Made by a program: the position numbers and the translations under genes. 38,035 bases of DNA from a virus. The notes beneath the pieces are model-generated. The model did no database searches, was not told where the DNA came from, and saw only the letters and a program-made list of their open reading frames with translations. The DNA lies in the UHGV virus genome UHGV-0072754. One strand, 5' to 3'. This document shows positions 2,998 to 38,035 of this stretch, piece after piece (the first letter of the stretch is position 1; every line of letters begins with the position of its first letter).

Positions 2998-3693
2998 CTA
3001 GCCGTGCCGTTTAAAGGATTGCGACTGGCTTATTAAAACCTTTCCATAAATGTAGAATCTATGCTCGTTATCTTTTGTGATACTCCATTCCCGATATTTT
3101 GGATTGTCAGAGATAACAAGAAGCTGGTCAGGAATCATCTGGAGCCGTTTTACGTATATTTTTCCATCAAAACCAAACACATATATACCATCGCCATCAA
3201 ATTCATTTATGTTGACGTCAACAAAAATGAGGTCTCCTGGCTCGATGGTTGACGCCATACTGTCACCACGAACGTTAATAACTTTAACGCCAGAAGATGA
3301 CCTGCCTCCAAACATAGTTAATGCCTGATCATTGCTGTATTCAATAGCATGTATGACATCAATAACATCACTGCTCTGTATGTGTCCTGCTCCGGCGCTT
3401 GCGCTCACATCAAGTACCTCGACTCTATAAACATCACCAATGCTACGTGATGATGAATCACTTTCACTGTTTAAATATACAGTAGCCTCATTTTCTGCCG
3501 AGGTAAATAGGTCAGGGACTTTTACGCTTAAAGCGTGAGCAAGTCGGTTAAGTGTTTGTTCTGAAAACTGCTTTTGCTTGCCTGTTTCCAGGCGGGAAAT
3601 GTTGGCAGCATCAACCCCCACAGTTTCAGCAAGCTCTGCGATTTTCATGTTCTTCGCGAGGCGAAGTTGTCTGATGCGAGATCCTATATTCAT
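2998..3693 (-). CDS. CI-like prophage repressor, HTH N-domain plus S24 LexA-like autopeptidase C-domain (231 aa)
   Basis: HTH (IGSRIRQLRLAKNMKIAELAETVGVDAANISRLETGKQ); S24 motifs VRGDSMASTIEPGDLIFVD and GKIYVKRL (Ser/Lys dyad); AG in linker; start ATG 3693 with almost no SD (leaderless-type, as lambda cI from pRM). Confidence 0.8.
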   Translation of the reverse strand: MNIGSRIRQLRLAKNMKIAELAETVGVDAANISRLETGKQKQFSEQTLNRLAHALSVKVPDLFTSAENEATVYLNSESDSSSRSIGDVYRVEVLDVSASAGAGHIQSSDVIDVIHAIEYSNDQALTMFGGRSSSGVKVINVRGDSMASTIEPGDLIFVDVNINEFDGDGIYVFGFDGKIYVKRLQMIPDQLLVISDNPKYREWSITKDNEHRFYIYGKVLISQSQSFKRHG

Positions 3694-4070: not shown

Positions 4071-4541
4071 ATGGTAGAGCCAAGCCTGAAAGAAGTAGTG
4101 AAAGCGATGTGCAAAGCGTACCCCGGAGGCCGTGAGGCTATGGCAGGTGCTCTTGGCATGTCAGTCACGCAGTTCAATAACAATCTGTACGAGAAGAACG
4201 GCTGCCGGTTCTTCGAGGTGAACGAGCTGGAAGCGATGGAGGACATTTCAAACACGTCTTTCCTGGCTGATTACTTCGCGCAACGTCGCGGCGCTCTCCT
4301 GGTGGAAGTTCCGCAACTTGAAGACCTCGATCGCGTTGACCTATTCACCCGTGCAATGAGAACTGCAGCAGCACGCGGTCAGGTTGATCAGATCATTCAG
4401 AAGGCGCTGGAAGATGGAGTGATTGAAGCGCATGAAGCGGAAGAAATTAACGAGTATCACCGCCGTCATCTGGCAGCGCGTGAAGAAGAAATCCGCGCGA
4501 TTGTCGCGCTGTTTAGCCGTAAGCAAAGCCAAAAAAAGTGA
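4071..4541 (+). CDS. cII-position regulatory protein (YdaT-like by position; family not verified)
   Basis: ATG 4071 with AAGGA SD; immediately downstream of cro-like gene; GC-rich hairpin GACGCCCG...CGGGCGTC follows the stop. Confidence 0.45.
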   Translation: MVEPSLKEVVKAMCKAYPGGREAMAGALGMSVTQFNNNLYEKNGCRFFEVNELEAMEDISNTSFLADYFAQRRGALLVEVPQLEDLDRVDLFTRAMRTAAARGQVDQIIQKALEDGVIEAHEAEEINEYHRRHLAAREEEIRAIVALFSRKQSQKK

Positions 4542-30010: not shown

Positions 30011-32718
30011 TGCCTGCTGCAATCCCTATCATCGCGACGGTAGCCGCTGGCGCCGCGGCGGCCAATGGAGCCTACGCTATCGCAATGGCAATCACCATTG
30101 CCGCTCAGGTCGCCACACAGATGATGACGAAAAAGCCATCACTGGGGTCTTACCGCGACACTGCAGAACGGAAGCAGGTGCTGCGCGCGGCTGCCAGCCC
30201 TAAAACGGTTGTTTATGGCAGGACCGTATCTGCAGGCACTCTGTTTTTCGCTGAAGAACAGCCTGGCGAGCAGACTGATGGCGAATGGGTTCACCTTGCC
30301 ATTACCCTGGCGGGACACCCAATATCAGGCACGGGCACCATTTACCTGGGCGATGATGATATTGGCTCGTATGGCGAGAACGCCACGTATGAAGTGCATA
30401 TCGACCGCCAGACAGCAGACCCGTTTATGCTGGAAAATTGCCCGTCGTGGAAAGATGACATGATCGGCAAGGGGATTTCCTGGCTTCGTCTGTCACTGAA
30501 ATACAATGCTGAGAAATTCCCGTCCGGCATCCCGAACGTGAAGGTTGAGAAGACGGGCAGGAAAGTATACGACCCGCGCACAGGCCGCACGGAGTACAGC
30601 AACAATCTGGCGCTGTGCGTGCTCGACTATTACCGGAGTTACCTGAAAGTCGCTGATGCTGATATTAACTGGGATCAGTTTCAGGAGGCGGCCAACATCT
30701 GCGACGAGCTGGTGACTAACGGCGACGGCACGACGGAAAAACGTTACACGCTTAACGGGGAATTTGACCTTAGCGAAAATAAGGCGAGCATTCTTGAGGC
30801 GATGCTGACAGCTGGTGCAGCGGAGCCAACCTACATCGCCGGTAAACATGGCATCCTCGTTGGCGCGTATTACGGCCCCGCAACCGAAATTATCACCGAG
30901 AGTCAGCTGGCCGGCGATATCGAGATCATGCCTGAGGTGTCACAGTCAGAGCGCGTTAACACCATCAGCGGTACGTTTGTCGATCCTAAACAGACCTACT
31001 CTGAAGCCGATTTTCCCTCAGTATCTGTCAGCGAGTGGGTAACCGAAGACGGCGTGGAGATATCGCAGGATCTTAAGCTGCGTTTCGTTACGTCTGAATT
31101 TCAGGCTCAGCGTCTGTCGGACATCAAGCTCAAGCGGACCCGCATTTCCCGCACAATGAATCTCACACTTAACCTGAGCGGGTATCGTTACCGTCCAGGT
31201 ATGTACGTAAAAGTTAATTTCCCTTCTCTTGGGATCGTTAACGTTGAGATGCGCGTGACAGACTGGAAATTTGGCGTGCAGAACGGCGTGCAAATTACAC
31301 TGAAGCAGGAAACTGCTGACGTGTGGGGTGATGCCATCGGTAAGCCCATAGATCGCCCCGATTTTACCAATCTCCCGCTGGGTGGGGTGGCGCAGCCTCA
31401 GAATCTGAAGTACACCGTGGAGGAAATAGGTCAGGTGGTGCAGGGCGTTCTCTCATGGCAGAACATCGGGCAGTTTGTCTATAACCAGGTTGTCATTCGC
31501 AGGAATGGCCACCCGGTGCTCACAGCACAGGTTCCCGGCTCGTTCACGCGATTAACTGGCCTGCTGCAGGATACTTACACAGCCCACGTCACCGCCGTTA
31601 ATCAGATGGGGGCAGCTTCGCCAGAGGCATATCTTGAATTCAGCATTGAGGCACCGCCTCCGCCGTCAGGTGTCACTGTAGAGCAGGCATTTTTTGCCGT
31701 GATGCTTATTCCCCGCCTCGCAGCCGTGACAAACGTCTCCACCCAGTTCGATTTCTGGACGTCAGGTGAGCAGCAGCTTGCCAATACAGATACGGCGACC
31801 GTGGAGGCCGAAGCCACGCGCGCGGGTATTGGCACGACGTGGACAAGCCACAACCTGAAAAATGGACATACCTATTACTGGTATATCAGAACCATCAACG
31901 CGTTTGGTGCGTCTGCCTTCGTCGAGGTGGCCGCGCTGTGCCAGACCGAAACCGGTGAACTCATCGACATTATTGATGATGCCGTGCGTGACTCTGATGC
32001 TTTCAAAAATGTTTCTGAAGGCGTGGACACCAACCTCGAAGCAGCCATGCAGAATTCCCTGGCAAATCACGGAACGGTTGAACACCAGTATCAGCAGTAC
32101 GGGGAGGTGCGCGCTGATATCCTGGTTGTTAAAACAACGGTCGCAGAAGTGGATAAAGGCCTTGCAGACCTGTCTACCTATGTGCAGGCCCAGGTAGGGG
32201 ATTTGACCGCCGCTGTTAACCAGAAATTGACGGCAGAAGTAAACAGTGATGGAACGGGAAAGGCGTCCTATACGCTCAACCTTGGGATAGTCAGAAGTGG
32301 GGTGAAGTACAACACTGGTTTCGGGATGTCTATTGAGCCATCTGGCGGGTCTTACAAATCCACAGTGGTCTTTGCTGCTGACCAGTTTGGTATCTACTCG
32401 GGAAGCGATCCGGGAAATTACCAGGCTGCTTTTTTTGTCTATAACGGCCAGGTGTTCATCCGTGATGCCTTTATCCAGGACGGCAGCATTACTAACGCGA
32501 AGATTGGTAATTACATCCGCTCATCAAACTATGTGGCAGGTCCTGGTGGTGCCGGGTGGAATATTGATAAGGGCGGGAATTGTGAGCTGCACGGCGCGCT
32601 GTATGCCGCCAGCGGTAATTTTGCGTTCACCGGGAATGGCAATGGCGTCACCATTGACGGAAGGGGCGTAAGAATTGATCTCGGTGGCGGGAACCTGATT
32701 GTTCTTGGAGAGTGGTAA
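30010..32718 (+). CDS. Host specificity / central tail fibre protein, lambda J-like (902 aa)
   Basis: Recalled similarity to lambda J C-proximal region (HVTAVNQMGAASPEAYLEFSIEAPPPPS; VSTQFDFWTSGEQQ; GHTYYWYIRTINAFGASAFVEVAA); hydrophobic Gly/Ala-rich N-terminus. Confidence 0.8.
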   Translation: MPAAIPIIATVAAGAAAANGAYAIAMAITIAAQVATQMMTKKPSLGSYRDTAERKQVLRAAASPKTVVYGRTVSAGTLFFAEEQPGEQTDGEWVHLAITLAGHPISGTGTIYLGDDDIGSYGENATYEVHIDRQTADPFMLENCPSWKDDMIGKGISWLRLSLKYNAEKFPSGIPNVKVEKTGRKVYDPRTGRTEYSNNLALCVLDYYRSYLKVADADINWDQFQEAANICDELVTNGDGTTEKRYTLNGEFDLSENKASILEAMLTAGAAEPTYIAGKHGILVGAYYGPATEIITESQLAGDIEIMPEVSQSERVNTISGTFVDPKQTYSEADFPSVSVSEWVTEDGVEISQDLKLRFVTSEFQAQRLSDIKLKRTRISRTMNLTLNLSGYRYRPGMYVKVNFPSLGIVNVEMRVTDWKFGVQNGVQITLKQETADVWGDAIGKPIDRPDFTNLPLGGVAQPQNLKYTVEEIGQVVQGVLSWQNIGQFVYNQVVIRRNGHPVLTAQVPGSFTRLTGLLQDTYTAHVTAVNQMGAASPEAYLEFSIEAPPPPSGVTVEQAFFAVMLIPRLAAVTNVSTQFDFWTSGEQQLANTDTATVEAEATRAGIGTTWTSHNLKNGHTYYWYIRTINAFGASAFVEVAALCQTETGELIDIIDDAVRDSDAFKNVSEGVDTNLEAAMQNSLANHGTVEHQYQQYGEVRADILVVKTTVAEVDKGLADLSTYVQAQVGDLTAAVNQKLTAEVNSDGTGKASYTLNLGIVRSGVKYNTGFGMSIEPSGGSYKSTVVFAADQFGIYSGSDPGNYQAAFFVYNGQVFIRDAFIQDGSITNAKIGNYIRSSNYVAGPGGAGWNIDKGGNCELHGALYAASGNFAFTGNGNGVTIDGRGVRIDLGGGNLIVLGEW

Positions 32719-32720
32719 CA

Positions 32721-33674
32721 ATGCCAAAAGGATTACGTCTTACCTACGACGACGGTGGCCCGGCAATGGAAATAACTGCCGGGCTCCGCTGCCCTTCGTT
32801 TTGCCAGAATGTTGGCGATGCCGGATCGGGCAATCAGTTCACAATCAACCAGCGAGTAGATGGAAGTCAGATCGTCCTTATTCCGCGCAATACTGTCGAC
32901 AGGTTTTGGGTGGGCACCAACCTTATACCAACAATTGTTATGCTGGATAGTTTTACCGTAAACGGCAATACCATCACCATGAATAACTGGCGTAGTGATG
33001 GGCTGGGAAGCCCTCGAACGTTTGCATCATCAATCTGGCAAATTCTTCCAGCCTCGTCAGGGAGGGGACTACTGATCAAGGACAGTACTGATTTCCTCTC
33101 AATCACCGATGCCACGATGTCGGGATACTGCGTCTGGCGCGGTACCGTCACCTTCACAGGAAGCTGGGCTACCCCAACGACAAACATCTCCCGCGACCGC
33201 TATATGGTGTTCGCCAAATGGAGTGCTGATAACGTCACCATTGAATTCGACGGCTCGAATATTATTGCGACAATAGACCATGCTGGTCTCGATCAGGATG
33301 CGACAGTTACCATGCAGATCGCTATTTTTGCCAGTGGCGTAAGCCCGACCCCGGGAAGAGGCCTGAATATCATAAAGGGTGGTGTCTGCGTGTTCTCCAC
33401 CACGCGCCGGCCGTTTGTGTACCGGAACCAGACCTACGCGCCATCATGGGGAAATACCGATATCGGGGATAGCATGATACTGCTTGGCCGCTATGGCTAT
33501 AACAGCGAGGTTTACACTGGCTGGGACTATTTGAAATGGGCGGGCCTGATCCGCAGCGGCAATCTGGTACGCGCCGGGAGGGGAAGAAATGTCGCTTCGT
33601 GGACATCGAAATACAGCGTCGTAGGACGAAGGCTGACAAGTCTATCCATCCCCGTTATTGATGCAATTTACTGA
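32721..33674 (+). CDS. Tail tip-associated protein of unknown function (317 aa; possible separate receptor-binding module)
   Basis: GGAGAG SD, ATG 3 nt after the J-like stop; no family recognised. Confidence 0.45.
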   Translation: MPKGLRLTYDDGGPAMEITAGLRCPSFCQNVGDAGSGNQFTINQRVDGSQIVLIPRNTVDRFWVGTNLIPTIVMLDSFTVNGNTITMNNWRSDGLGSPRTFASSIWQILPASSGRGLLIKDSTDFLSITDATMSGYCVWRGTVTFTGSWATPTTNISRDRYMVFAKWSADNVTIEFDGSNIIATIDHAGLDQDATVTMQIAIFASGVSPTPGRGLNIIKGGVCVFSTTRRPFVYRNQTYAPSWGNTDIGDSMILLGRYGYNSEVYTGWDYLKWAGLIRSGNLVRAGRGRNVASWTSKYSVVGRRLTSLSIPVIDAIY

Positions 33675-33675
33675 C

Positions 33676-33700
33676 AACCCGCTCCGGCGGGTTTTTTATT
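33676..33700 (+). terminator. Intrinsic terminator before tail fibre gene
   Basis: AACCCGC-tccg-GCGGGTT then TTTTTATT. Confidence 0.6.
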
Positions 33701-33721
33701 ATCTGAATTCAGGAGTCCATT

Positions 33722-35056
33722 ATGTCGGCAGGAACCATTACCCTGACAAACGGGTCCGCTATTGTTGGCGGTGCCGGAACCTCATTCGCAACCGAACTCT
33801 CCGGAGGTGATTTCATTGTTTCGACTGTGGGCGGTGTGCCCTACACGCTGCCGGTGAAAACGGTCGACAATAATACCCAGGTGACGCTGGTCAGCAACTT
33901 CACCGGGCCAACACAATCCGGCGCTGCCTGGTCAGCCGTTCCCCGCGTTGCGCTGAACATGGTAACTGCTGCGCTGGTGGCACAAAGTGCAGAAGCGCTG
34001 CGTGGACTGAATTACGACAAAAAGAACTGGCAAAGTATTTTTTCTGGAAACGGCAATGTAACAGTGACTTTGCCGAATGGGACGAAATGGACGGGACCAG
34101 CATGGAATGGCATTGCCACTACTCTCTCAGGCAAGGCGGCAAAAGGTGCAAACGATGACATTACCTCGCTAAGCGGGCTGACTACAGCGCTAAGTATTTC
34201 ACAGGGAGGGACTGGTGATAAAACTGCCGCTGGCGCTCGCAAAAACCTCGGTCTGGGAACTTCTGCAACGAAAAACACAGGAACAACGAGCAATGATGTC
34301 ATGCAGCCAGGCATGTTTGGGCTTGGTCGTCCGGATGGGGCATTAATATTCAACACAACGAGCCAGGATGATCTTCTTGTTGGATTGACAGGGTATGGGC
34401 TTACGGTTCTTCGAAATAATGCACAGATACCAGAGCCATGGAATATATGGAACTATTCACCGACAATATTTGCCCGTGCAGGTGATACGTATAGCCTTTT
34501 TTCAATGCCTTTTCAGTCATCTGGAAAAGTACGTATTTTGGGTGGCGCTGCAGGATCAGGTTGGAATCACAGCAGGATATTATACGATGATAAAAACACA
34601 GTCGTGGATAGCAATGGCTTTATAAAGAAGGCATCCCCGGTCGTCAAAATCTTCACTGATGGTAAGTATGAAACTAACGACGAATCAGAAGGCGTCACGG
34701 TCACTCGTCTGGATGTCGGGCAATATCTTATTGAAGGCTGTAAAGCACTCAATTCAGACGCTGCATGGGGAGGTATCGACGGAGGGTTTGAGATTCCCAC
34801 AGACAGGAATAAGCAACCGCTTATATGGCTGGACTACGAGGTTAACGCAGATGGCTCTGTGCTGGTAAAAACCTATCACCGCGAACATCCTTCTGCGCCA
34901 GCATTTGCCAGGAATGAGCGTGATGGATTGGCAGATGGCGAGCCGGTTGACATCCCGGCTGACCAGTTCGTCAGCGTTCGTGTAGAAATGCCAGCTGACA
35001 GCATCTGGAATAAGAAACAAGCGGAAGAGGCTTTAAAGCAGGAACAGGGCTCGTAA
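33722..35056 (+). CDS. Side tail fibre protein (444 aa)
   Basis: Conserved fibre N-terminus MSAGTITLTNGSAIVGGAGTSFATELSGGDFIV; Gly/Thr-rich shaft; AT-richer distal part. Confidence 0.75.
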   Translation: MSAGTITLTNGSAIVGGAGTSFATELSGGDFIVSTVGGVPYTLPVKTVDNNTQVTLVSNFTGPTQSGAAWSAVPRVALNMVTAALVAQSAEALRGLNYDKKNWQSIFSGNGNVTVTLPNGTKWTGPAWNGIATTLSGKAAKGANDDITSLSGLTTALSISQGGTGDKTAAGARKNLGLGTSATKNTGTTSNDVMQPGMFGLGRPDGALIFNTTSQDDLLVGLTGYGLTVLRNNAQIPEPWNIWNYSPTIFARAGDTYSLFSMPFQSSGKVRILGGAAGSGWNHSRILYDDKNTVVDSNGFIKKASPVVKIFTDGKYETNDESEGVTVTRLDVGQYLIEGCKALNSDAAWGGIDGGFEIPTDRNKQPLIWLDYEVNADGSVLVKTYHREHPSAPAFARNERDGLADGEPVDIPADQFVSVRVEMPADSIWNKKQAEEALKQEQGS

Positions 35057-35096
35057 AAAAAACCGCCGCCATTTTTCGTAAGAATGAGCGGCGGTT
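35054..35096 (-). terminator. Terminator for the leftward DinI-like gene
   Basis: On minus strand: 8-bp stem ACCGCCGC/GCGGCGGT with 18-nt loop followed by U-run. Confidence 0.45.
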
Positions 35097-35150
35097 GATT
35101 GCTCAGAGTTCATGCCCAAACAAACGTAGGGAATATTACCTGAACAAGAT

Positions 35151-35417
35151 TTACAGGCCAACCTGGCGAACGGTCGGGAACTCAGAAACCAGCCACATAT
35201 CGGACTCTTCAAACATTTCCTCCAGCATGCGGTTCAGTTTTTCCCGATCGCTTTTGCTGGCATCGCTATTCAGGCCGTTTGCCTGCATCGGCTTCACCTT
35301 CACTTCGGCATCAGGGAAAATCTGGTGCACCCGCTTCTTCAACTCGGCCAGTATGATCTCTCTGGCCCCTTCGAGCCCCTCTACATTTCGCTTGTCATAA
35401 ACCAACTCAACGAACAT
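35151..35417 (-). CDS. DinI-like damage-inducible protein (88 aa)
   Basis: C-terminus EEMFEESDMWLVSE matches the DinI signature (E. coli DinI ends ...ETWESADDWFVSE); GGAGAG SD; LexA box in promoter. Confidence 0.75.
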   Translation of the reverse strand: MFVELVYDKRNVEGLEGAREIILAELKKRVHQIFPDAEVKVKPMQANGLNSDASKSDREKLNRMLEEMFEESDMWLVSEFPTVRQVGL

Positions 35418-35460
35418 CACTCTCCATCCTTGCTGACTTGATCTGGTGAAACAAAAATAC

Positions 35461-35480
35461 TACTGTATATGCATACAGTC
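35461..35480. promoter_or_regulatory. LexA box (SOS operator) between divergent genes
   Basis: TACTGTATATGCATACAGTC, perfect CTGT-N8-ACAG palindrome; on minus strand it sits in the spacer of TTGACT-N17-TATTTT. Confidence 0.75.
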
Positions 35481-35503
35481 AATAATCAAGTGAGGGTGCT
35501 GCT

Positions 35504-35743
35504 ATGCCTCGCCAATATGATATTCACGCAGCTTTTTTAGCCTCTATAGAACAGAATCCAAAGGGCTACCTTTGCCTAAAAACAAACAAATTCATCAATA
35601 ATTTGCGCGAGAAGAACTGGCATTTCAGCCAGGCAGACGCTAACGCATGGATTGAGAGATACCAGCCTGATTTTGCTGATAAGACGACGGATGGCAGTGA
35701 TAACCGTTACTGGATCTTGCGAAATATGGGGAGGGTATTCTGA
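35504..35743 (+). CDS. Hypothetical protein (79 aa), first gene of LexA-box-proximal operon
   Basis: GAGGG SD; 24 nt downstream of the LexA box; ATGA-coupled to next gene. Confidence 0.5.
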   Translation: MPRQYDIHAAFLASIEQNPKGYLCLKTNKFINNLREKNWHFSQADANAWIERYQPDFADKTTDGSDNRYWILRNMGRVF

Positions 35744-36063
35744 TGGGCTTTCCTTCACCAGCAATGGATTACCAGGAACAACGGTTAACCATCGATCTGT
35801 TATGCGGAATTGATGGAAACTGCAGGGTAATAGAAACGTCATGCGGTTGGGCTGTCATTAACGTTGCCATGAGGCCAGAGCAGGGAGATACGCTACTGGT
35901 AAGAATGGATAACAGGAACGAGTTTGCAAAGCTATACGGGGCGGCATTGATAACTGAAGATGGTGAAGCGATAGAAGGCGACGCGCTGGATGACGTGGAG
36001 GTTTTTGGCGTGCTAACGCATAGTCTTAACCGGGTTGGTAATGATGACTGCCCGGCAATTTAA
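35743..36063 (+). CDS. UmuD'-like protein lacking the Ser/Lys catalytic dyad (106 aa)
   Basis: N-terminus MGFPSPAMDYQEQR matches UmuD residues 25-38 (GFPSPAADYVEQR) and C-terminus DVEVFGVLTHSL matches DTLDVFGVVIHV; no GDSM motif. Confidence 0.55.
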   Translation: MGFPSPAMDYQEQRLTIDLLCGIDGNCRVIETSCGWAVINVAMRPEQGDTLLVRMDNRNEFAKLYGAALITEDGEAIEGDALDDVEVFGVLTHSLNRVGNDDCPAI

Positions 36064-36115
36064 AGCAGGGTTCAACCATCATTTCATCATCGTTTCGCCA
36101 TCATGGTTTACGGGA

Positions 36116-36146
36116 ACAAAAAACCAGCCTCTTACGGCTGGTTTTC
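36116..36146. terminator. Bidirectional-type terminator adjacent to tRNA-Pro fragment
   Basis: A-run, CCAGCC-tcttac-GGCTGG, T-run. Confidence 0.55.
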
Positions 36147-36156
36147 AAAGTGTTTT

Positions 36157-36205
36157 TGGTCGGCACGAGAGGATTTGAACCTCCGACCCCCGACACCCCA
36201 TGATG
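36157..36205 (-). other. tRNA-Pro(GGG) 3' fragment (~47 nt, anticodon loop to CCA); relic attachment-site candidate
   Basis: Minus-strand sequence TCATGGGGTGTCGGGGGTCGGAGGTTCAAATCCTCTCGTGCCGACCA matches the 3' part of E. coli proL as recalled; no 5' half present. Confidence 0.65.
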
Positions 36206-36211
36206 GTGACC

Positions 36212-36625
36212 TTACTTAACGTAAGTACCGCAAGTATTGCATTTATACTTACCGGCAAAACGAAATTGACCGTTTACTGCGCTCATTGAAGACATTTTCT
36301 TTTCTGAACTTTCATAGCATTTGGGACAAAAAGGGCCATTAGGCTTTCCTTCAATTTCATTAGCCCGCCAGTAAACTGCTTCACGGAAAACAAGCTCATC
36401 AGAAGCGTCCAGTTTTCCTTGCAATTCTGTAACCTTGCGCTTCAGTTCATACATCTCCAATTGCGTATCAGCCAATTCGATTTTTGCTTCTGATAAGGCG
36501 CTGTAAAGATCACTGATCTTTAACCTCATCTCGGCATCATTGTATGCTCCAGAGGCGTTTTTAATGTCTTTGGCTAAATCAAATGCGGTTTTCAGTGCGG
36601 TTAAACCTGTGACGATGTCTGCCAT
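36212..36625 (-). CDS. Hypothetical coiled-coil protein with C-terminal zinc-ribbon (137 aa)
   Basis: AAGAGGG SD; CPKC-x17-CNTC; low GC; sits between two tRNA fragments. Confidence 0.55.
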   Translation of the reverse strand: MADIVTGLTALKTAFDLAKDIKNASGAYNDAEMRLKISDLYSALSEAKIELADTQLEMYELKRKVTELQGKLDASDELVFREAVYWRANEIEGKPNGPFCPKCYESSEKKMSSMSAVNGQFRFAGKYKCNTCGTYVK

Positions 36626-36840
36626 AGTACCCTCTTATATTCAGAAAAATGATCTTCAAAACAACGAGTTTACATCCAGCGAAAGATTTTTTTTGTGAAT
36701 AAAATCAAACCAATTTCAGGCTCAACCATTCGCCATTGTGACTGTAGGATAACCGTAAACCATTGATTCAATTGATGTTAAAATTATGAATTAATGGCGA
36801 ACAATAAACATATGTATTTGATTTTTATAGAAAACACGCG

Positions 36841-36897
36841 TGATTTAAAATCCCTCGGCGTTCGCGCTGTGTGGGTTCAAGTCCCACTCCGGCTACC
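36841..36897 (+). other. tRNA-Leu(UAA) 3' fragment (57 nt); candidate prophage attR core
   Basis: GATTTAAAATCCCTCGGCGTTCGCGCTGTGTGGGTTCAAGTCCCACTCCGGCTACCA matches the leuZ-type tRNA-Leu 3' part from anticodon loop to CCA; upstream 30 nt are AT-rich non-tRNA sequence. Confidence 0.7.
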
Positions 36898-36937
36898 ATG
36901 GGAAACAAAGAATAATCAAAGCAATAAGCAGTGTCGT

Positions 36938-36962
36938 GAAACCACCGAAAGGTGGTTTTTTT
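36938..36962 (+). terminator. Intrinsic terminator of the host tRNA locus
   Basis: CCACC-gaaa-GGTGG then TTTTTTTT. Confidence 0.6.
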
Positions 36963-37200
36963 GTGCCTCTGGCTTAGCGCGAAGTGAGCGCATCTCATCG
37001 TCATCACGATCGTGCTGTGCCCGGAAATTTGCTGCCATACCAGAACGTTAAGCCTAACTCTCTAATATCAAGCCCGGAAAGCAGGGCGATTGTCAGCTAA
37101 CCTGCAACCAATCTTAAACAAATATTTCACTCGCCAGACACAGGTTGCCGCCGCTGATAAACTGGTTGGTATCCACCCTGGAGAGCGGAAGGTTATTGTC

Positions 37201-37878
37201 ATGCAATATGAAGAACAGCAGCTTATCAACGGCCTTTTCGAGCGTCTTAAACAGGCCGGACAACAAAACAGCAAACGTGATGCAGATGCAGAGCGTCAGA
37301 TCGCTGAATTTGTCAGACAGCAGCCTGCGGCCCCCTACTATATGGCGCAGTCGATTTTGATTCAGGAAACGGCGCTGAAACGTCTGCAGGCCCGGGTTCA
37401 GGAGCTTGAAAGCGAATTAGCCGCGCAAAAAAGCAAACCCTCGACGGGCGGCAGTTTCCTCGGCGGCCTGTTTGGTGGCGGGAAAAGTAACCCGCAGCCT
37501 GACAACAGCTGGAATGCCCAGCCGCAACAGCCACCGGCGCAGGATTACTCTCGGGCGCCAGCGCCAGCTACTCGCGGCGGCGGTTTTATGGCTGGCGCGC
37601 TCCAGACAGCCGCTGGCGTGGCCGGTGGCATCGCGCTTGCCGAGATGCTTACCAGCATGTTCCATCAGTCGCGGCCGGAAGAGATCGTGAACATCATCGA
37701 AGAACCGACAATGCCCGTCGGTGGTGGACCGTTTGTCGGTAATCAATACGGCGACGTTAATAACGTCTCTGACACCCGTTTCCTCAACCAGAACGATCCG
37801 TTCGGCAGTAATAACGACATCTGGCAGAACGACGATGTAGATGACGACTACAGCAATGACGACGACAGTTTTATTTAA
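37201..37878 (+). CDS. Host-side hypothetical protein, Gly-rich centre and Asp-rich C-terminus (225 aa from ATG 37201)
   Basis: Track ORF begins at TTG 37090; first ATG with plausible SD at 37201; GC content and codon use differ from the AT-rich islet. Confidence 0.45.
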   Translation: MQYEEQQLINGLFERLKQAGQQNSKRDADAERQIAEFVRQQPAAPYYMAQSILIQETALKRLQARVQELESELAAQKSKPSTGGSFLGGLFGGGKSNPQPDNSWNAQPQQPPAQDYSRAPAPATRGGGFMAGALQTAAGVAGGIALAEMLTSMFHQSRPEEIVNIIEEPTMPVGGGPFVGNQYGDVNNVSDTRFLNQNDPFGSNNDIWQNDDVDDDYSNDDDSFI

Positions 37879-38035
37879 CGACGTTATCGTGAAACTACCG
37901 AAATGAAGTGAACCCCGAAAGTTGGGTATCCAACGATTAGGGGTTTTGCGTTTCTGAATCAAAAAAACCTTTGAGGCTAAGCCTGAAGGCTCATAAATCA
38001 CATTCTTTTTACTATTTTTCTTACTAACAAACCTG

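Follow-up and report, generated by a model that had tools for sequence, protein, structure and literature searches.

A reduced, apparently pre-processed relative of phage HumD under a LexA box at the end of a lambdoid prophage: a candidate UmuD' surrogate

One of the main safeguards of the SOS response is when error-prone repair takes place: UmuC turns active only after UmuD has been cleaved on RecA filaments. Assembly of Pol V is delayed until ~45 min after SOS induction (PMC6375631). In an AlphaFold-based model of Pol V, one UmuD' N-terminal arm is inserted beside UmuC's active site, and UmuD' that is armless, or that has lost one N-terminal residue, is impaired in mutagenesis (PMC11791011). 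The same in-silico model places the C-terminus of UmuC in a pocket formed by UmuD' residues S36, T71, K73, and E69, which correspond to S60, T95, K97, and E93 of UmuD (PMC11791011). The PDB contains no solved Pol V structure, only those of DinB/Dpo4 relatives.

The concept of a pre-processed phage UmuD' has been known since HumD of phage P1, a phage analogue of UmuD' (as are N15 gp26 and HK639 UmuD) that begins with MGFPSPA at the equivalent of UmuD Gly25. P1 HumD is 43% identical to UmuD and keeps the catalytic Ser and Lys in register. Its gene has its own LexA site and no umuC alongside, and in the phage P1 record HumD is annotated with the words 'functionally complements E. coli UmuD''. That LexA site is common to humD and the divergent lxr, annotated as 'LexA regulated function' (L004, 1754-2890). 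Two further systems invite comparison. LexA-controlled antirepressors, such as 186 Tum, Gifsy GfoA/GftA, and N15 AntC, are likewise products of small SOS-controlled phage genes near a dinI homologue (PMC3121763); in the Gifsy prophages, the antirepressor gene points the same way as dinI, and the small repressors there are non-cleavable (PMC3121763). In LexA and UmuDAb, a winged-HTH DNA-binding domain precedes an S24-type domain on a single chain, and UmuDAb is an example of a UmuD homologue that is able to function as a repressor (PMC4807011).

The window analyzed here (the whole stretch of 38,035 nucleotides from virus genome UHGV-0072754) includes the right-hand end of a prophage that is lambdoid (HK97/mEp390-like) and most likely comes from an Enterobacter. 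Its tail fibre genes (32712..35056) lie upstream of a small module in which dinI (35151..35420, minus strand) diverges from two overlapping plus-strand genes, one for a 79-residue protein (P79; 35504..35743) and one for a 106-residue UmuD'/HumD-like protein (U106; 35743..36063). The 3' 52 nt of tRNA-Pro (36157..36208, minus strand) form the attachment-site core and mark the end of the prophage; in E. coli ECONIH4, the same module adjoins an intact tRNA-Pro beside yejM. Essentially the same protein is found in the same module (dinI, LexA box, P79, U106, attP) in phage mEp390, whose gp26 is 97% identical to U106. The mEp390 RefSeq entry (NC_019721.1) and PHROGs call this protein UmuD-like, and the original GenBank record calls it a hypothetical protein; our literature searches found no functional study of it. 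The mEp390 record (L001) has no P79 open reading frame, and a 129-bp minus-strand gp25 is annotated inside P79 instead.

Past the tRNA-Pro fragment, positions 36212..36625 (minus strand) encode a 137-aa protein with a coiled coil and a zinc-ribbon-like region (phrog_1244), and the plus strand at 36838-36897 resembles the 3' portion of a tRNA-Leu(UAA)-like gene (...GGTTCAAGTCCCACTCCGGCTACCA). ARAGORN detected no whole tRNA in the window, and an Rfam scan of 35000-38035 identified neither an RNA family nor a partial tRNA. The region between the two tRNA fragments looks like the remnant of a second integrated element. A PADLOC scan for defence and anti-defence systems gave nothing relevant.

The divergent genes are separated by an 83-bp intergenic region that contains a LexA (SOS) box, TACTGTATATGCATACAGTC (35461..35480), 41 nt before the ATG of P79. 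The box has one mismatch to the LexA consensus, and 0.02 such matches are expected per window by chance. The divergent gene encodes a member of the DinI family of RecA-filament binding proteins (Pfam DinI, 1.3e-22). A consensus scan placed a sigma-70-like dinI promoter (TTGACT, 17 nt, TATTTT) at 35454..35482 on the minus strand, where it overlaps the LexA box, the box sitting between the -35 and -10 elements. No plus-strand promoter for the P79-U106 operon passed the consensus scan; a weak candidate picked out manually consists of TTGATC (35438-35443), a 17-nt spacer, and TACTGT (35461-35466). Both P79 and U106 have a Shine-Dalgarno sequence, which for U106 is a GGAGG located 8 nt 5' of the start. 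The stop codon of P79 and the start codon of U106 have one base in common (TGATG), and a terminator-like element (36120..36157, plus strand), made up of a hairpin (AAAACCAGCC-TCTTAC-GGCTGGTTTT; 36120-36145) and a T-rich run after it, lies 57 nt past the U106 stop. An initial sequence-only reading of this stretch had placed U106 in one transcript with the 79-aa gene, downstream of a LexA box. Co-transcription under the LexA box is supported, and the overlap indicates that U106 is translationally coupled to P79. The divergent layout of humD and lxr in P1 mirrors the layout of dinI and the P79-U106 operon.

A CTGT-N8-ACAG box is present at 79 of the 80 IMG/VR loci and at 61 of the 76 genome loci with relatives of U106, and in both sets it always lies 34-41 nt 5' of the operon's first gene. 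Among the 80 IMG/VR loci, the box is found mostly 271-281 nt 5' of the U106 start where P79 precedes U106, and mostly 38-39 nt 5' of that start where P79 is missing. DinI is a frequent but facultative neighbour, missing from many of the viral and genome loci.

The longest possible reading of U106 begins with the ATG at 35743 and the sequence MGFPSPA. Because this ATG is the first start codon past the upstream in-frame stop, no propeptide can be encoded before it; U106 has no N-terminal propeptide with a Cys/Ala-Gly cleavage site and starts at the equivalent of Gly25. A phmmer search against PDB sequences aligned residues 2-39 of U106 with UmuD 25-62 and UmuD' 1-39. With a family profile built from 29 members, hhalign aligned residues 2-98 with E. 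coli UmuD 25-138 (probability 97%, E 7e-11) and set VEVFGVLTHSL of U106 over LDVFGVVIHVV of UmuD. The alignment from Gly25 and the UmuD-like C-terminal strand that the sequence-only reading had described are both recovered in this way. P1 HumD was matched over its full length by the family profile (98.4%, E 4.7e-15), and the match includes a C-terminal tail (DDCPAI in U106, DDCPVI in P1 HumD) that UmuD lacks.

The active-site region was compared by means of the hhalign profile and of a MAFFT alignment of 66 sequences (64 family members, HumD, and UmuD). Two deletions are common to all short members in the MAFFT alignment, the first of 11-12 residues including UmuD 58-68, that is, the GDSM loop with Ser60, and the second of about 15 residues around UmuD 103-117; together, they leave U106 about 23 residues shorter than HumD. 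The column of UmuD Lys97 is occupied by Ala62 in U106 and by A or G across the short family in both the profile and the MAFFT alignment, and in the phmmer alignment, which is ungapped, Ser60 falls opposite Ala37. None of the three alignments (phmmer, hhalign profile, MAFFT) puts a Ser-Lys dyad in register in U106. The segment carrying Ser and Lys had been described as replaced. This holds insofar as the dyad is absent and Lys97 has given way to alanine, but both the profile and the MAFFT alignment show a deletion, not a replacement, of the Ser60 loop (UmuD about 55-68, KASGDSMIDGGISD). The proposal that U106 is made directly in the processed form, and cannot cleave itself, is supported by the MGFPSPA start and by the lack of a propeptide and of a dyad. 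In the MAFFT alignment, several HumD-type members of 120-130 aa also lack Ser or Lys. Taken alone, the missing dyad does not point to a new function and is compatible with a relaxation of selection once self-cleavage is no longer needed.

The AF2 model of U106 is weak (pLDDT 62.7), and its top Foldseek matches are all C-terminal domains of LexA, UmuD, UmuD', and lambda CI, at TM about 0.55, among them RecA-bound UmuD (8gmt, TM 0.55). The UmuD fold postulated from the letters is thus what structure prediction returned, and a C-terminal domain of the S24-type beta fold is predicted for U106 by this model of pLDDT 62.7 together with the profile alignments. A Pfam scan of U106 gave no match, including none to PF00717 (Peptidase S24). 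The NCBIfam HumD model NF051876 scores 34.6 bits over residues 1-60 only, against a cut-off of 120, which places U106 outside the HumD equivalog.

With E. coli UmuD and UmuD', U106 therefore has in common the predicted fold, the arm motif GFPSPAxDYxE, the C-terminal strand VFGVV.H, and LexA control, whereas it lacks the 24-residue propeptide, the cleavage site, the Ser60 loop, Lys97, an adjacent umuC, and the Pfam S24 match of UmuD. With P1 HumD it has in common the start at the Gly25 equivalent, a LexA box of its own, the absence of umuC alongside, and the ..DDCPxI tail. The two proteins are about 30% identical, and U106 is 23 residues shorter through its two deletions. Whereas P1 HumD keeps both Ser and Lys, U106 has neither, and only U106 has a new invariant acidic motif. 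This motif, LITEDGEAIEGDALDDV (GEAIEGxAL), is invariant in U106-type proteins and lies within the acidic stretch LITEDGEAIEGxALDDV that is the signature of the short form; U106 as a whole is strongly acidic (pI 4.1, net charge -12.4). The motif suggests an altered binding surface. On the strength of these alignments, U106 is a reduced relative of HumD.

PHROG 3469 ('UmuD-like protein') matches U106 end to end (9.7e-48). The family comprises at least 400 protein clusters (at 90% identity) of 104-109 aa in Enterobacter, Klebsiella, Escherichia, Raoultella, and Lelliottia; it is carried by 98 phage records, and a relative of U106 is encoded on at least 516 IMG/VR contigs. The viral contigs with the family belong to Enterobacterales. 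A genome scan adds Erwinia, Pantoea, and more distant relatives of HumD length from Rahnella (30-40% identity), and the best genome match to the U106 protein comes from Enterobacter sp. ECC-219 (98%). The genes occupy moron-like positions, flanked by the tail fibre genes and att/int or placed immediately 5' of the terminase genes. With a pairwise dN/dS of 0.097 (745 pairs), the U106 family is under strong purifying selection, and the gene is real. Residues M1-A7, E12, N26, E31, T32, G35, L52, F61, G66, and I70 are invariant, as are T71, G74, E78, L82, G89, and T92. The N-terminal arm is the best-conserved part of the family, with D9 and Y10 kept in at least 90% of members.

Based on these data, a simple model would have U106 serve as an SOS-induced, pre-processed UmuD' surrogate for host UmuC, as a reduced variant of HumD; we give this reading an even chance of being correct. 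U106 would then be an accessory subunit for a UmuC-type translesion polymerase, made only once LexA has been inactivated. An initiator Met is removed when the next residue is Gly, and such removal would give U106 a GFPSPA end, the same that RecA*-mediated cleavage of UmuD creates. Because this N-terminus is ready-made, U106 would require neither RecA* nor the Ser-Lys dyad and would escape the ~45 min delay that gates host Pol V. The protein may dimerize via its conserved C-terminal strand, with one arm reaching the active-site region of host UmuC, and a prophage that is induced with damage in its own DNA would obtain immediate lesion bypass, a self-supplied form of Weigle-type reactivation, possibly together with more host mutagenesis. 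The winged helix of P79 may act as a stoichiometric cofactor, and DinI, expressed across the same LexA box, may tune RecA*. The surrogate reading is supported because the arm that the Pol V model places beside the UmuC active site is what U106 conserves best. In addition, U106-type (54 loci) and HumD-type (17 loci) genes fill the same slot behind P79, and the conserved LexA box, the purifying selection, and the linkage to umuC in other prophages (see below) speak for a surrogate as well.

The main caveat is that the pocket for the UmuC C-terminus is absent from U106, which counts against a surrogate, as do the loss of ~23 residues relative to HumD, the altered acidic surface, the score of 34.6 bits against 120, and the weak AF2 model. 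Because this pocket has been lost while the arm and the dimer strand have been kept, U106 could instead be a decoy or anti-mutator that draws host UmuC into dead-end complexes, or UmuD/UmuD' into mixed dimers, so that Pol V or the UmuD2C checkpoint is restrained during phage replication. We regard such a role as unlikely. It would explain why the equivalents of the Ser60 loop, Lys97, and Glu93/Thr95, which the model ties to UmuC C-terminus binding (PMC11791011), are missing; it would also suit the C-terminal strand as the part of U106 most similar to UmuD, the very acidic character of the protein, and a window without umuC. As the sequence-only reading had stated, no umuC lies nearby: the window has no Y-family polymerase, and the best tblastn match for umuC has E 0.15. 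U106 may, as that reading further suggested, titrate UmuC, UmuD, or RecA*. Against a decoy, U106-type genes swap with HumD-type genes at the same locus, and P1 HumD is recorded as complementing UmuD'. Nohmi et al. reportedly found in 1988 that S60A UmuD' still supports mutagenesis, which would likewise count against inhibition.

The short-form family is linked to umuC in other prophages. In Kosakonia prophages, a LexA box is followed by a 94-aa U106-type gene and then by an intact 421-aa umuC (IMS, IMS_C, and DUF4113 domains), the start of which lies within one or two bases of the stop of the 94-aa gene or overlaps it. This layout occurs in at least six contigs and in the slot after the tail fibre genes (the tail-fibre-to-integrase position). 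The 94-aa protein has the reduced U106-type body and the signature (SLITEEGEAIEGDALDDV...FDDYPVM, with SLITEEGEAIEGDALDDVEMLGVVTHII..FDDYPVM), but its N-terminus differs and is degenerate (MTHPLFSISGLSPQAQY), making it an imperfect proxy for U106, and the operon also differs from the U106 locus in having no P79. An inhibitory role is hard to reconcile with the finding that the same body type shares its operon with a umuC that is both intact and conserved. The UmuC paired with the 94-aa protein (L142 4980-6531; L247-L251, Kosakonia) ends in ...TDVPRVF, and the umuC product of locus L128, encoded after a full-length, self-cleaving-type umuD, ends in ...SDLLVVR.

Vestiges of umuC accompany other copies of the gene. 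On one IMG/VR contig (L070, 3300031133_000418, 4319-4450), a P79-U106 operon is followed, after the U106 stop, by a (TGTGA)n microsatellite and then by umuC codons 1-34 (76% identity to E. coli UmuC), where the homology stops. The fragment is a scar left by a phage umuC that has since been lost. At locus L140, the U106-type gene is followed by a C-terminal remnant of umuC, and at two Phytobacter/Kosakonia loci (L127 and L128) a truncated U106-like open reading frame lies between umuDC and integrase. Such vestiges, along with the deleted central loops, are what would be expected if U106 were the decaying, functionless relic of a lost phage umuD'C operon. A relic is nevertheless very improbable in view of the dN/dS of 0.097, the constant length of 104-109 aa, the motifs that do not vary between Erwinia and Enterobacter proteins of about 33% identity, and the conservation of the LexA box and the ribosome-binding site.

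The partner gene adds a second component. P79 is confidently modelled as a winged helix (topology alpha1-beta1-alpha2-alpha3-beta2-beta3). It is only mildly basic (pI 8.85) and has no match to LexA_DNA_bind or another DNA-binding Pfam family. The P79 family is small (155 representatives at 50% identity), with a pairwise dN/dS of 0.085. Across 80 P79-centred loci, the neighbouring gene, always joined by an ATGA overlap, is U106-type in 54 cases and HumD-type (~129 aa) in 17, the remainder being variant or truncated copies of either type. Because all 80 loci have such a gene next to it, P79 is never alone and occurs only in front of UmuD'-like genes. P79 itself is missing from at least a quarter of the family loci, namely, by manual count of the locus tables, from about 30 of the 80 viral loci and about 23 of the 76 genome loci, and P1 humD has no P79 gene. 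In E. coli ECONIH4 (L253), P79 is a pseudogene with an internal stop next to an intact U106. The 80-aa P79 homologues of Erwinia phages (L087/L088) are annotated as 'DNA polymerase V'. Candidate P79-UmuD' fusion proteins were rejected, as the longer representatives are frameshifted read-throughs.

Together, P79 (winged helix) and U106 (S24 fold) reproduce the domain order of LexA and UmuDAb, with the break at the cleavage point. The pair could thus be a LexA-like protein split at its cleavage site, in which the winged helix would bring a UmuD'-like dimer to DNA. The two pieces would rebuild a non-cleavable, SOS-induced DNA-binding complex that controls phage or host genes, or acts as an antirepressor, a reading that we consider improbable. 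The confident winged-helix model, the coupling of P79 to U106 and its confinement to UmuD'-like genes, the start of U106 at the LexA/UmuD cleavage point, and the example of UmuDAb (PMC4807011) all speak for it. However, P79 and U106 are separate polypeptides that lack a dyad, no relation in sequence between P79 and the LexA DNA-binding domain was detected, and no true fusions were found. The lack of P79 from at least a quarter of the loci and from P1 humD, its mild basicity and lack of a DNA-binding Pfam match, the canonical self-cleaving CI of the prophage, and the linkage of the family to umuC also argue against a two-piece regulator. If it were correct, the P79-U106 unit could direct lesion bypass to phage DNA or, alternatively, regulate SOS or phage genes in a second stage that is insensitive to RecA; in both cases, the module would be an SOS effector of a new kind, not a plain copy of HumD.

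The resemblance of the U106 model to RecA-bound UmuD (8gmt, TM 0.55), and the divergent dinI under the same LexA box, would also be in line with an uncleavable S24 domain that docks in the RecA filament groove like UmuD and, with DinI, damps the cleavage of LexA, UmuD, or CI. In LexA-type substrates, the cleavage-site region and the active-site loop engage RecA*. Both are absent from U106, DinI is missing from many loci, and competition for RecA* leaves the invariant free GFPSPA arm and the linkage to umuC unexplained. We hold this alternative to be improbable, though less so than a functionless relic.

The sequence-only reading had also considered an antirepressor-like effector. The prophage CI (about 3693..2998, minus strand) combines an HTH with a Peptidase_S24 domain (1.9e-20, domain scan) and keeps the Ala-Gly site (ASAGAG), GDSM, and VKRL; by these features, it is a canonical self-cleaving repressor. 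An antirepressor role is unlikely because CI is of this type, and it is further disfavoured because U106-type genes also sit in operons with umuC. Pfam, PHROGs, NCBIfam, and PADLOC scans gave no antirepressor family match. In contrast to the Gifsy-type arrangement, dinI is divergent here and CI is a standard self-cleaving repressor. With a gene order unlike that of Gifsy and Tum, no family match, and a cleavable CI, the antirepressor was rejected as the main reading.

A second near-consensus LexA box, TACTGTATATTTAAACAGTG, lies inside cI (minus strand, 3465-3484), with two mismatches and 0.02 matches expected per window. Within the gene, it occupies the linker immediately ahead of the Ala-Gly site and the S24 domain. 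Homologues of cI in two Klebsiella phages (~83% identity) retain the CTGT/ACAG arms, with a variable spacer; the box could reflect coding constraint or be a real LexA site.

The surrogate reading thus places U106 beside HumD, in a reduced form. What appears to be undescribed in the literature searched is a reduced subfamily with a lost active-site loop and strict LexA control, its exclusive winged-helix partner, and the intact or vestigial umuC beside some copies. A supply of the cut form of UmuD at once could change the speed and strength with which lysogens mutate after exposure to DNA-damaging antibiotics, and prophages with such a gene are very common in Enterobacter, Klebsiella, and E. 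coli. For the phage, a ready-made UmuD' could improve survival after induction. The winged-helix partner P79, found only with UmuD'-like genes, is an unstudied component of the module. More generally, the short form represented by U106 would be a minimal UmuD' made by nature, in which the arm and the dimer strand are preserved and the active-site pocket is gone, and it can therefore show which parts of UmuD' are required to switch on UmuC.
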